DNA of 20,498 nt, taken from the IMG/VR virus record IMGVR_UViG_2877280126_000007; one strand, 5' to 3'. This stretch comes from a virus (taxonomy: Duplodnaviria; Heunggongvirae; Uroviricota; Caudoviricetes). A program made the position numbers and the translations under genes. Below the pieces are notes generated by a model. The model saw only the letters and a list, made by a program, of their open reading frames with translations, did no database searches and was not told where the DNA came from. Shown here piece by piece: positions 13,699 to 17,346 of this stretch (position 1 is its first letter; the number at the start of each line of letters is the position of its first letter).

Positions 13699-14002
13699 GG
13701 TTCAGCAGATTTGGCGCAACTGGCAGATTGTGGTTCGAGTTCGTAGTCGCTCTGAACTTGCGTTTCTGCTTACAGCGTAGCCTTAGCTCCTTACGAAGAC
13801 GTGCCAGTCGGTCACGACCAACGATGATGCCATTCTCTGCCAGCTCCGTCTGGAGCCGCCGGGTTCCATATGTTTCGCGAGTGCGGATATGTGCCACCTT
13901 AATCTCCAGTTTTAGCCGCTCATCACTTTGTTTTCTGTCTGAGGGTTCATGCTGTACCCAGTTGTAATAACCGCTCCTGGATACACCAAATACCTGACAC
14001 AT
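13699..14002 (-). pseudogene. IS600 orfB N-terminal fragment truncated by IS911
   Basis: MCQVFGVSRSGYYNWVQHEPSDRK…PNLLN is identical to the intact orfB N-terminus, then runs into IS911 sequence. Confidence 0.85.
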
Positions 14003-14037
14003 CGCTTCAATGGGAAATTGTTGTCGCCATTGTTCGA

Positions 14038-14340
14038 TTAACGCGTATTTTTCAGCGACTCCTGTGCAAAATACGCTGTTGCTTTTTTTAATATATCTCG
14101 CTCAAGGCGAGCTTCATTTAACGCCTTACGCAGTTGCAGAATTTCAGATTCCAGTTCAGCCACCGTGCGGGAACCAGGAGTACCGAGCCCTTTTCTGGCG
14201 GCGGTAACCCATTGTCCTAAAGTGCCTTCAGGAAGAGATAATCGGGAAGCGCCTTCACTGATCGAAAGTTGATTTTCAAGAACCGTTCTGACAGCTTCGG
14301 CTTTGAACTCTTTAGAGTAACGTTGGGTTTTTCTGCTCAT
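14038..14340 (-). CDS. IS600 OrfA
   Basis: 100-aa ORF MSRKTQRYSKEFKAEAVRTVLENQLSISEGASRLSLPEGTLGQWVTAARKG…, identical to the orfA of the other copies. Confidence 0.85.
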   Translation of the reverse strand: MSRKTQRYSKEFKAEAVRTVLENQLSISEGASRLSLPEGTLGQWVTAARKGLGTPGSRTVAELESEILQLRKALNEARLERDILKKATAYFAQESLKNTR

Positions 14341-14396
14341 TATTAGCTCCTTCTGAGGTGTACTGGCAATAGCGGACACTACCATTTGTTCTTTTT

Positions 14397-15215
14397 TTAA
14401 GCAGCCATCTGATGATATTTTTCCCTGAAGGCTGCCGGGGAGATATTCCCCAGACGAGAGTGACGACGCTGACGATTGTAGAAAATCTCAATGTATTCCC
14501 GTATTACTGAGATGGCTTCATCCCGGTTATTAAAACGATAGTGGCTCAGGCTCTCATTTTTCAGCGTTCCCCAGAAGCTTTCCATCGGAGCGTTGTCGTA
14601 ACAGTTACCTTTACGCGACATTGATGTTTTCAGACCAGACTGCTCCTGTATGACCCGGTAATCGTATGCGCAGTACTGTGAACCTCGATCAGAGTGGTGG
14701 ATTAGCCCGGCAGGTGGGCGCTGGCTCCTGAGCGCCATAAACAGGGCTTTACCTGTCAGCTCTTTTGTCATGCGCTCTCCCATGGCGTAGCCGACAATTT
14801 CGCACGTATAAACATCTTTGATGCCAGCGAGGTACAACCATCCCTCCTGTGTGGCAACATACGTCAGGTCCGCCACCCAGACCTGATTTGGTGCTGTAGG
14901 AGCGAACGTCTGGTTCAGCAGATTTGGCGCAACTGGCAGATTGTGGTTCGAGTTCGTAGTCGCTCTGAACTTGCGTTTCTGCTTACAGCGTAGCCTTAGC
15001 TCCTTACGAAGACGTGCCAGTCGGTCACGACCAACGATGATGCCATTCTCTGCCAGCTCCGTCTGGAGCCGCCGGGTTCCATATGTTTCGCGAGTGCGGA
15101 TATGTGCCACCTTAATCTCCAGTTTTAGCCGCTCATCACTTTGTTTTCTGTCTGAGGGTTCATGCTGTACCCAGTTGTAATAACCGCTCCTGGATACACC
15201 AAATACCTGACACAT
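14397..15215 (-). CDS. IS600 OrfB (DDE transposase domain)
   Basis: 272-aa ORF with integrase-core motifs (…VWVADLTYV…HHSDRGSQYCA…). Confidence 0.9.
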   Translation of the reverse strand: MCQVFGVSRSGYYNWVQHEPSDRKQSDERLKLEIKVAHIRTRETYGTRRLQTELAENGIIVGRDRLARLRKELRLRCKQKRKFRATTNSNHNLPVAPNLLNQTFAPTAPNQVWVADLTYVATQEGWLYLAGIKDVYTCEIVGYAMGERMTKELTGKALFMALRSQRPPAGLIHHSDRGSQYCAYDYRVIQEQSGLKTSMSRKGNCYDNAPMESFWGTLKNESLSHYRFNNRDEAISVIREYIEIFYNRQRRHSRLGNISPAAFREKYHQMAA

Positions 15216-15250
15216 CGCTTCAATGGGAAATTGTTGTCGCCATTGTTCGA

Positions 15251-15553
15251 TTAACGCGTATTTTTCAGCGACTCCTGTGCAAAATACGCTGTTGCTTTTT
15301 TTAATATATCTCGCTCAAGGCGAGCTTCATTTAACGCCTTACGCAGTTGCAGAATTTCAGATTCCAGTTCAGCCACCGTGCGGGAACCAGGAGTACCGAG
15401 CCCTTTTCTGGCGGCGGTAACCCATTGTCCTAAAGTGCCTTCAGGAAGAGATAATCGGGAAGCGCCTTCACTGATCGAAAGTTGATTTTCAAGAACCGTT
15501 CTGACAGCTTCGGCTTTGAACTCTTTAGAGTAACGTTGGGTTTTTCTGCTCAT
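15251..15553 (-). CDS. IS600 OrfA
   Basis: 100-aa ORF MSRKTQRY…. Confidence 0.9.
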   Translation of the reverse strand: MSRKTQRYSKEFKAEAVRTVLENQLSISEGASRLSLPEGTLGQWVTAARKGLGTPGSRTVAELESEILQLRKALNEARLERDILKKATAYFAQESLKNTR

Positions 15554-15617
15554 TATTAGCTCCTTCTGATGCCATTCTATTTCAGGAAGGAGTGTCCGTT
15601 AAACTCAGGCTACCTCA

Positions 15618-15855
15618 GGTTATTCGCTTCTGGGCATGGGCGGATCAACAAATGATAGACGGTAATGCAGATTGTAACGCTCGCGGCGTTACAAAAAGTG
15701 CAATAGATCGCATCACTTTTATGTCTGGTTTTGCTGATGCGTTAATTCAGGTTGGATGGCTGGTCGAAAATGACGGAGGGCTTTCTCTACCTAACTTTGA
15801 ACGTCATAACGGAAAAAGCTCTAAAAAAAACGGGCGGTTACAAACGAGCGAGTAA
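15618..15855 (+). pseudogene. 276-bp remnant of an unidentified gene trapped between two inverted IS600 copies
   Basis: Open frame …VIRFWAWADQQMIDGNADCNARGVTKSAIDRITFMSGFADALIQVGWLVENDGGLSLPNFERHNGKSSKK… with no start of its own (the listed start lies inside IS600). Origin unknown. Confidence 0.4.
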
Positions 15856-15893
15856 CAAAAATACGCGAACTGAAACGAAAAGGTAACGCTGCC

Positions 15894-15947
15894 TGAGGTA
15901 GCCTGAGTTTAACGGACACTCCTTCCTGAAATAGAATGGCATCAGAA
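15894..15947. repeat. Extra tandem copy of the first 54 bp of the IS600 left end
   Basis: TGAGGTAGCCTGAGTTTAACGGACACTCCTTCCTGAAATAGAATGGCATCAGAA occurs at 15894-15947 and again at 15948-16001, where it starts the complete copy. Confidence 0.85.
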
Positions 15948-16011
15948 TGAGGTAGCCTGAGTTTAACGGACACTCCTTCCTGAAATAGAATGGCATCAGA
16001 AGGAGCTAATA

Positions 16012-16314
16012 ATGAGCAGAAAAACCCAACGTTACTCTAAAGAGTTCAAAGCCGAAGCTGTCAGAACGGTTCTTGAAAATCAACTTTCGATCAGTGAAGG
16101 CGCTTCCCGATTATCTCTTCCTGAAGGCACTTTAGGACAATGGGTTACCGCCGCCAGAAAAGGGCTCGGTACTCCTGGTTCCCGCACGGTGGCTGAACTG
16201 GAATCTGAAATTCTGCAACTGCGTAAGGCGTTAAATGAAGCTCGCCTTGAGCGAGATATATTAAAAAAAGCAACAGCGTATTTTGCACAGGAGTCGCTGA
16301 AAAATACGCGTTAA
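16012..16314 (+). CDS. IS600 OrfA
   Basis: 100-aa ORF identical to the other copies. Confidence 0.9.
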   Translation: MSRKTQRYSKEFKAEAVRTVLENQLSISEGASRLSLPEGTLGQWVTAARKGLGTPGSRTVAELESEILQLRKALNEARLERDILKKATAYFAQESLKNTR

Positions 16315-16349
16315 TCGAACAATGGCGACAACAATTTCCCATTGAAGCG

Positions 16350-17168
16350 ATGTGTCAGGTATTTGGTGTATCCAGGAGCGGTTATTACAACTGGGTACAG
16401 CATGAACCCTCAGACAGAAAACAAAGTGATGAGCGGCTAAAACTGGAGATTAAGGTGGCACATATCCGCACTCGCGAAACATATGGAACCCGGCGGCTCC
16501 AGACGGAGCTGGCAGAGAATGGCATCATCGTTGGTCGTGACCGACTGGCACGTCTTCGTAAGGAGCTAAGGCTACGCTGTAAGCAGAAACGCAAGTTCAG
16601 AGCGACTACGAACTCGAACCACAATCTGCCAGTTGCGCCAAATCTGCTGAACCAGACGTTCGCTCCTACAGCACCAAATCAGGTCTGGGTGGCGGACCTG
16701 ACGTATGTTGCCACACAGGAGGGATGGTTGTACCTCGCTGGCATCAAAGATGTTTATACGTGCGAAATTGTCGGCTACGCCATGGGAGAGCGCATGACAA
16801 AAGAGCTGACAGGTAAAGCCCTGTTTATGGCGCTCAGGAGCCAGCGCCCACCTGCCGGGCTAATCCACCACTCTGATCGAGGTTCACAGTACTGCGCATA
16901 CGATTACCGGGTCATACAGGAGCAGTCTGGTCTGAAAACATCAATGTCGCGTAAAGGTAACTGTTACGACAACGCTCCGATGGAAAGCTTCTGGGGAACG
17001 CTGAAAAATGAGAGCCTGAGCCACTATCGTTTTAATAACCGGGATGAAGCCATCTCAGTAATACGGGAATACATTGAGATTTTCTACAATCGTCAGCGTC
17101 GTCACTCTCGTCTGGGGAATATCTCCCCGGCAGCCTTCAGGGAAAAATATCATCAGATGGCTGCTTAA
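16350..17168 (+). CDS. IS600 OrfB (DDE transposase domain)
   Basis: 272-aa ORF identical to the other copies. Confidence 0.9.
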   Translation: MCQVFGVSRSGYYNWVQHEPSDRKQSDERLKLEIKVAHIRTRETYGTRRLQTELAENGIIVGRDRLARLRKELRLRCKQKRKFRATTNSNHNLPVAPNLLNQTFAPTAPNQVWVADLTYVATQEGWLYLAGIKDVYTCEIVGYAMGERMTKELTGKALFMALRSQRPPAGLIHHSDRGSQYCAYDYRVIQEQSGLKTSMSRKGNCYDNAPMESFWGTLKNESLSHYRFNNRDEAISVIREYIEIFYNRQRRHSRLGNISPAAFREKYHQMAA

Positions 17169-17346
17169 AAAAAGAACAAATGGTAGTGTCCGCTATTGCC
17201 AGTACACCTCACTGTTAAAAATTTAATCCTTAACCGGAGGGATTTCTGCACCCTCAAATCATCAGGAGACCACCCGAAAGGGCGGGGAGCAGTCACACAT
17301 CTGTTTCCGATAGCCCCGTTCTAATGCTACACTCTTTGATATTTTT

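Follow-up and report, generated by a model that had tools for sequence, protein, structure and literature searches.

Elements of the IS3 family such as IS911, IS2 and IS3 form circles and tandem dimers in which the right and the left end of the insertion sequence (IS) are abutted. A different type of rearrangement is known from Tn10, whose inside-end deletions and inversions follow the cut-and-paste route of IS4-family elements and predict that both ends join one target site. IS600, the element considered here, is one of five IS that have expanded in Shigella and shows its greatest recent activity in Shigella sonnei, with substantial variation from strain to strain (PMC7373316). Target duplications are lost via recombination between IS copies and via adjacent deletions, and IS movements can be coupled to deletions without leaving a duplication (PMC11708052). 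We analyzed an array of IS600 copies at positions 13699–17211 of a 20,498-nt stretch of DNA filed as IMG/VR virus record IMGVR_UViG_2877280126_000007 (hereafter the window, meaning this whole stretch) by base-by-base comparison, a repeat search and inspection of the list of open reading frames (ORFs). The locus very probably records genuine, strain-specific IS600 activity, which has left a scar in a defective lambdoid (Rac-like) prophage beside modC/ybhA of S. sonnei. In particular, a truncated IS600 and an apparently duplicated 54-bp left end, listed as separate features in a preliminary description, are the two halves of one IS600 copy that was split by a second copy.

The IS600 array and its junctions

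The array contains two full IS600 copies of 1264 bp each: copy B on the minus strand (14354–15617) and copy C on the plus strand (15948–17211), which the repeat search of the whole window returned as a 1264-nt perfect inverted pair and which match at 1264 of 1264 positions. Both carry the imperfect terminal inverted repeats TGAGG.../...CCTCA (terminal sequences TGAGGTAGCCTGAG... and ...CAGTACACCTCA), and records 99.4–99.8% identical to them are annotated as 'IS3-like element IS600 family transposase, programmed frameshift', the frameshift being known here from annotation alone. In copy C, orfA and orfB correspond to ORFs of 100 amino acids (16012–16314) and 272 amino acids (16350–17168), respectively. 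The preliminary description had placed the two full copies in inverted orientation with their left ends facing each other across 276 bp of foreign DNA. This arrangement is borne out with one refinement: the total gap amounts to 330 bp and comprises 276 bp of prophage DNA (15618–15893, plus strand), an internal fragment of an O-like replication gene that keeps its native orientation with respect to the QueH segment right of the array, and a 54-bp stub of IS600 (15894–15947, plus strand). The stub equals the IS600 left end at 54 of 54 positions, includes the complete left inverted repeat together with a promoter-like site, and forms a perfect tandem with the beginning of copy C (15894–15947 and 15948–16001, each IS600 positions 1–54).

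The partial copy, X (13699–14353, minus strand), comprises IS600 positions 706..52 and is identical to positions 52–706 of copy C (655 of 655). It retains orfA and the first part of orfB, and the lost part of its left end, which holds the inverted repeat and the promoter-like site, measures exactly 51 bp. X directly abuts the right-end tip of copy B at 14353/14354, as the preliminary description had recognized, whereas its figure of about 48 missing base pairs has to be corrected: a 3-nt coincidence (TGA/TCA) at this junction carries the repeat match of X on to 14356, so that the repeat search reported a 664-nt arm (13693–14356) complementary to 15996–16659. Wherever they overlap, B, C, the stub and X are identical in sequence, and chance can be discounted for repeats with exact matches of 655 to 1264 bp.

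Four junctions define the array. At J1 (14353/14354, read on the minus strand: ...CAGTACACCTCA|GAAGGAGCTAATAATG, in short ...ACACCTCA|GAAGG) a complete right tip gives way to IS600 sequence from position 52 onwards, and at J4 (15947/15948: ...GAATGGCATCAGAA|TGAGGTAGCC, in short ...CAGAA|TGAGGTAGCC) IS600 positions 1–54 are followed by a complete left tip. The remaining two connect IS tips to prophage DNA: J2 (15893/15894) joins the tip of the stub to the target GCC at the right edge of the 276-bp fragment, and J3 (17211/17212) joins the right tip of copy C to the target CTG at the start of the QueH segment. The stub (positions 1–54) and X (positions 52–706) overlap by exactly 3 bp, GAA, and jointly restore a contiguous IS600 1–706 with zero mismatches. 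This overlap recurs in the flanks of the full copies: the triplet beside the right tip of B is TTC (14351–14353, minus strand) and the triplet beside the left tip of C is GAA (15945–15947, plus strand), a reverse-complement pair that corresponds in both cases to IS600 positions 52–54. Three base pairs is also the length of the target duplication of IS600 in our dataset, where GGT flanks copy B on both sides in 13 loci, the empty site of this copy, GGGAAGGTTATTCGC, is present in eight loci, and a 3-bp direct repeat is found in 4 of 11 distinct full-length IS600 insertion contexts (CAA, GGA and TAC flank other copies). By our own estimate, an overlap of exactly +3 would arise from independent breakpoints in a 706-bp target about once in 700 cases.

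Because the overlap of stub and X matches the length of the IS600 target duplication and both breaks (J1 and J4) carry complete IS600 tips, the comparison of sequences identifies stub and X as two halves of one IS600, split at positions 52–54 by a second IS600 in the same orientation; J1 and J4 thus belong to one paste-in event. Two earlier statements change in this light. The first 54 bp do occur in perfect tandem, yet they represent the severed left end of X and not a duplicated left end of C. Likewise, a direct 3-bp repeat is indeed absent around B (TTC...GGT) and around C (GAA...CTG), whereas a target duplication, GAA, is nevertheless present, split and inverted between the flanks of the two copies. 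The array therefore resembles a nested insertion of one IS into another in its complete inserted tips at both junctions, its 3-bp GAA target and its pieces that sum to IS600 1–706. It differs from one in that the two host pieces do not flank a single inserted copy in one orientation: X borders on B (minus strand), the stub on C (plus strand), so that the halves lie beside two inverted full copies, parted by 276 bp of prophage DNA. This separation demands a later rearrangement.

The circular intermediates of the IS3 family, which the preliminary description had invoked as the mechanism, serve as background only and are not evidenced here. The array shares with circles and tandem dimers the family of the element and the head-to-tail succession of X and B on the minus strand, but a right tip within a few base pairs of a left tip occurs nowhere in the window: at J1 the right tip meets position 52, at J4 the left tip meets position 54, and J4 consists of two left ends in tandem. 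B, the 330 bp and C do not form a composite transposon either, as judged by the differing outer flanks TTC (14351–14353) and CTG (17212–17214).

We searched for recurrence of the new junctions. Neither the 54-bp tandem nor the junction of a right tip with position 52 had a contiguous match in 5,426 complete Escherichia coli genomes and 72,556 plasmids, where entries with an apparent coverage of 100% broke down into two unconnected stretches of about 30 nt, both derived from ordinary IS600 left ends. Scanning for the exact patterns among the GTDB representatives, which include essentially one E. coli/Shigella genome and thus give the scan little power, and in JGI metagenomes returned no junction match, and none of seven ORFs spanning J1–J4 was found in a protein collection that also lacks the ORFs of the source assembly. 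The 54-bp duplication, for which a check of other IS600 copies had been proposed, was consequently not encountered elsewhere in the genomes, plasmids and metagenomes searched. As nested junctions are not recurrent in these collections, there is no sign of a preferred self-target in IS600.

The precursor layout in S. sonnei and its derivatives

A comparison with the orthologous locus of other Shigella strains had been recommended in the preliminary description and, made with S. sonnei, proved informative: most assemblies carry a simpler layout. The loci were retrieved by three protein look-ups, with QueH, a 98-amino-acid ORF beside IS911 and the truncated DUF1367 protein as queries, which covered roughly 30 S. 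sonnei assemblies. The window itself is 100.000% identical to S. sonnei CP022459.1 (locus L020; L033 is the same assembly) over 18,387 bp. The precursor layout is found in loci L009, L012, L013, L015–L017, L019, L025, L028–L030 and L032, and 22 places were reported as similar. Read in the orientation of the window, its order is IS2, an ISEc20-like element, IS911, X(706..1), a segment we call a2, copy B (minus), the 276 bp, a segment we call d, QueH and following genes, a further IS600 copy D (minus), an int fragment and modC. Segment a2 (1672 bp) encodes a DUF1391 protein, a cI-like repressor, Cro and part of YdaT; segment d (2041 bp) holds the rest of the O-like gene, ydaV, a DUF977 gene and a hypothetical gene, and is contiguous with the 276 bp in the sister strains. 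The left end of X is intact in the precursor (L009, 3880–4591, to position 1), and B is a simple insertion with its GGT duplication. An uninterrupted relative, E. coli FDAARGOS_944 (L001), shows the native arrangement: the 276-bp fragment (98.9% identical to 10342–10616, inside the coding sequence 10239–11027) and the QueH segment (17212–19298 of the window, 99.9% identical to 12642–14730) share one orientation there and are separated by about 2 kb (2025 bp in BLAST coordinates).

The window and its sisters have the old junctions in common, namely IS911 with position 706 of X (17 loci), the left tip of B with the 276 bp (19 loci; flank GGT) and the QueH segment with the right tip of D (18 loci), which identifies the window as a derivative of the precursor layout. 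At the right tip of B, in contrast, the window has a new junction, while the ancestral one with the matching GGT flank is preserved in 13 loci. Compared with the precursor, the window lacks a2 and d, X is split at 52–54, the stub is inverted and located to the right of the 276 bp, and copy C, which is without counterpart in the sister strains, is an extra full copy. An IS600 was pasted into X at positions 52–54 in the same orientation with a GAA duplication, the two halves now lie on opposite sides of the 276 bp in opposite orientation, and 1672 bp as well as 2041 bp are gone. The flanks of the array are collinear with the sister genomes at 99.9–100% identity, and the four new junctions J1–J4, which involve three target sites (IS600 positions 52–54 for J1 and J4, GCC for J2 and CTG for J3), are confined to the window and L020/L033, being absent from the 31 further loci that were retrieved. 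The earlier proposal that several IS600-mediated rearrangements and not independent simple insertions produced the locus is thereby upheld, as the sisters display the precursor and the window departs from it by four IS-tip junctions and two deletions.

The J2 site has a further property in the precursor: it lies inside a perfect 8-bp hairpin-forming palindrome, GTAACGCT-GCC-AGCGTTAC (window 15878–15893 together with L009 7804–7811), with the joint directly after the 3-nt loop GCC. This could reflect a preference for a target structure or a coincidence.

Two other assemblies carry different derivatives of the same interval. In CP151349.1 (L011, 6840–7827), X(706..1) is joined directly to the 276 bp via the old left junction of B; this locus arose by homologous recombination between X and B, which form direct repeats. 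In CBDDMI010000001.1 (L026, 4640–4690), the right tip of B is joined to the interior of IS911 at the equivalent of window position 13561, so that IS911 has lost its final ~137 bp, and X as well as the 1672-bp cI/cro segment are missing; this is an independent deletion anchored at the IS600 end of copy B. The modC-proximal defective prophage thus contains a small hotspot around a2, of note for S. sonnei genomics, where three different IS600-mediated derivatives arose independently, one of which lost cI/cro/ydaT and replication genes.

Possible routes from the precursor to the array

The positions of J2 and J3 constrain the possible histories. In the precursor, their targets are 2041 bp apart and have no common duplication, which implies either two events (an insertion and an end-anchored deletion) or one insertion with deletion. 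Moreover, homologous recombination cannot make the tip-to-target junctions J2 and J3, and transposase-type end joining is therefore needed as well: the minimum is two or three rounds of end joining by IS600 in addition to homologous recombination. A one-step model, by which one homologous inversion or one intramolecular transposition would convert the common layout into the window, was rejected because the targets of J2 and J3 differ and lie 2041 bp apart.

For the steps that follow the nested insertion we propose a most likely route, each type of step being either seen at this locus or documented elsewhere. First, X would have received an IS600 at GAA. Together with the inserted copy, the stub, whose sequence includes the entire left inverted repeat, would then constitute a 1318-bp unit with usable outer ends. 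In the third step, this unit would have been mobilized in plus orientation to the GCC that borders the 276 bp on the right, creating J2. Subsequently, 2041 bp would have been lost from the right tip of the unit to CTG, creating J3, either by an adjacent deletion (as in L026) or by a concurrent insertion plus deletion without target duplication. Finally, homologous recombination between the inserted copy and B, which are direct repeats, would have removed the original stub together with a2 (as in L011 for X and B), so that X(706..52) adjoins a full copy in which the old left junction of B is retained. The unit would be marked by the k-mer GGCATCAGAATGAGGTAGCC, and the predicted intermediates by the succession of a right tip and GCCAGCGTTAC (unit at GCC, 2041 bp kept), by that of TTTAGCACTG and a left tip (insertion at CTG) or by a nested X::IS600 beside a preserved 1672-bp segment.

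Both ingredients of this route have described counterparts. Homologous recombination between IS copies in Shigella (PMC7373316, PMC5629016) is matched by the identical 1264-bp copies in direct and inverted orientation, by the loss of duplications and intervening DNA and by the clean deletion between X and B in L011, but the tip-to-target junctions J2 and J3 of the array go beyond recombination alone. IS-end-anchored deletion and deletion-coupled IS movement (PMC11708052) are matched by J2 and J3, which flank an IS unit that replaces 2041 bp without duplication (GCC versus CTG), and by the tip-anchored deletion in L026; the direct cases in that work concern IS5 and IS481 (in addition to elements of the long-term evolution experiment, LTEE), not IS600, and a single-step origin is only one possibility for the array. 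We consider it rather doubtful that the 1318-bp derivative with two left ends transposed as a unit and that its arrival removed the 2041 bp in a single step, leaving no target duplication. If this were true, the array would be a natural Shigella example of insertion-with-deletion events, which have so far been documented mainly in laboratory evolution. The unit with two left ends could alternatively reflect the rescue of a reciprocal circle from an intramolecular transposition of the deletion type.

Several points weigh against the proposed reading. The array structure is found in one assembly only (CP022459.1), and an intermediate strain was not found among the sampled loci. For the time after the nested insertion, the data fit more than one succession and kind of events, and other orders reach the same end state. 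As J2 (GCC) and J3 (CTG) have no common duplication, at least one step is an undocumented deletion, and the mobilization of a 1318-bp IS600 with two left ends is no more than plausible. The coincidence at J1, finally, where TCA represents IS600 positions 49–51 as well as the last 3 nt of the right tip, permits a 6-bp overlap combined with an incomplete tip, an alternative that would not fit a standard insertion.

The strongest competitor accepts the same nested insertion but separates the halves by an inversion instead of by movement of the 1318-bp unit, which we regard as possible, if clearly the less probable course. In one version, the inward ends of the precursor, the left end of X and the right end of B, would jointly attack GCC, the 1672 bp would be dropped with inversion of B and the 276 bp, a flip between the inverted copies would follow, and the 2041 bp would be deleted in an end-anchored manner. 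In the other version, one replicative-type intramolecular transposition of IS600 into X would generate the inverted GAA pair directly. Reverse-complement GAA halves on inverted identical copies with facing left ends are exactly the product expected from such events: inverted identical copies bearing the target duplication as a reverse-complement pair are what an inversion-type transposition or an insertion followed by a flip would leave, so that the structure is compatible with this history without being exclusive to it. Furthermore, undoing the flip between B and C formally restores an intact nested X::IS600 beside an inverted 276 bp, and an end-anchored deletion at the right tip of B is independently seen in L026. 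This formal ancestor (X, inverted 276 bp, IS600, QueH), however, is present in no sampled genome and still requires the prior loss of both unique segments, and the number of events is not lower than on the preferred route. Joint cut-and-paste by the ends of two copies as well as Shapiro-type replicative transposition are non-canonical for IS3-family elements, which move by copy-out/paste-in, and this counts against both versions. The analogy to the inside-end events of Tn10 is similarly incomplete: the left tip of X and the right tip of B do face each other in the precursor across the lost 1.67-kb segment, and an adjacent segment may be inverted, but J2 and J3 of the array are 2 kb apart.

An assembly artefact, in which IS600 repeats would have been wrongly joined or collapsed in CP022459.1 and the strain would in truth have the common S. 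sonnei layout, is highly improbable. The confinement of the four new junctions to one assembly and their absence from 31 other loci and from every collection searched would be expected of an artefact, but mis-assembly joins within shared repeats and does not connect complete IS tips to non-homologous DNA. Nor would it place two junctions 3 bp apart in register with the length of the IS600 duplication, and the array measures only 3.5 kb with repeats of 1.26 kb between flanks that are collinear with the sister genomes. Least probable of all is a local duplication of the left end of C by slippage or aberrant end processing next to an independent end-anchored deletion from the right tip of B as the source of X: although such a deletion occurs in L026 and no sequence marker ties the stub to X, given that all IS600 left ends are identical, the ends at 54 and 52 would have to coincide by chance with a 3-bp overlap, the joining of the outer tandem tip to new DNA at GCC would be left unexplained, and no other IS600 with a tandem left end exists in the E. 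coli genomes, plasmids, GTDB representatives and JGI metagenomes searched.

The phenomena that make up the array are already known (nested insertion, loss of duplications, end-anchored deletion), and the array is mechanistically conventional and ordinary for Shigella. Matching the flanking triplets across copies in combination with a sister-genome comparison recovers a specific history, that is, a nested insertion followed by recombination. The array also calls for caution in IS mapping by short reads, where it would appear only as new IS600 junctions. Its significance beyond annotation and method is little, and no new biology is implied.

The surrounding prophage and its other insertion sequences

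The array has no function of its own, nothing suggests a selected function, and its consequence is that the defective prophage of this strain lost its repressor, cro and ydaT as well as replication genes. A sigma-70-like motif, TTAACG-17-TAGAAT, identified by consensus match only, is located in the IS600 left end and thus in the stub (15909–15937), in copy C (15963–15991) and in copy B (15602–15574, minus strand). The X fragment is devoid of it, whereas two such promoter-like left ends stand in tandem ahead of copy C. A consensus scan for a promoter created at J1 gave only the normal left-end site, three times (B, stub and C).

Two features beyond those in the preliminary description lie on either side of the array. 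On the left, IS911 (12450–13698, plus strand, 1249 bp; terminal sequences TGAAGTGGCAC... and ...GACCACTTCA), identified by matching records annotated as IS3-like element IS911 family transposase, abuts IS600 position 706 with its right tip ...CCACTTCA at 13698 and thereby truncates X; a fusion ORF across this junction has two records only, both from S. sonnei. On the right, the native neighbor of the array is the prophage segment with QueH, hokD, Rem and a truncated DUF1367 gene (17212–19298, plus strand), followed by the fourth IS600, copy D (19299–20498, minus strand), which comprises positions 1264..65, is cut by the end of the window and is common to S. sonnei. Its flanks AAT and GTT show no target duplication, and it differs from B and C by one single-nucleotide polymorphism (SNP) at position 126. 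The late region of the same prophage (1544–12451) is inverted and contains IS1, IS2 and an ISEc20-like IS110-family element. IS1 (768 bp) lies at 407–1174; the holin gene harbors IS2 (8925–10255, 1331 bp) in its 3' end, flanked by a clean duplication of 5 bp, CTTAC; the ISEc20-like element (10464–11911, 1448 bp) encodes a 398-amino-acid transposase and is flanked by CCCC. Counting the four IS600 pieces and IS911, IS DNA accounts for about 45% of the window. A plasmid origin was discarded, as no PLSDB record covers at least 80% of 13000–18500 and only scattered IS matches were obtained, and a literature search for CP022459/CP022457 returned unrelated mentions only.

An ORF of 87 amino acids (15592–15855, plus strand) begins within the left end of B and continues into the 276-bp fragment. 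Several S. sonnei annotations list this ORF as a gene (for example L013, 6425–6688; L025, 5902–6165), but it is a by-product of the IS600 insertion. Copy B at its one site varies among L012, L013, L015, L016, L019, L025, L028 and L029 at positions 126 (C/T) and 789 (T/C) in all four combinations, which suggests gene conversion between IS600 copies rather than simple descent. An assignment of the donor of B or C by means of these two positions was attempted and abandoned: they vary in copy B among strains, but the pieces in the window are identical.

In all S. sonnei of the common type (for example window 1544–19298 and L013, viewed against L001 and L018), the early region of the prophage (DUF1391 to the truncated DUF1367 gene) has the inverse orientation to int/modC and to the late genes. 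IS600 copies D and X delimit this region in direct orientation, with the right tip of D and the left tip of X facing inward. A simple homologous inversion would leave inverted copies and does not account for this older rearrangement. VFAD01000001.1 (L018) contains the prophage without the inversion, and IS911 occupies the same late-side junction there. In CP026762.1 and CP045784.1 (L007 and L008), the QueH segment is directly preceded by an inverted IS911 with a different junction, at the equivalent of window position 17273, accompanied by differently rearranged IS arrays: the same prophage was independently scrambled in other Shigella lineages.

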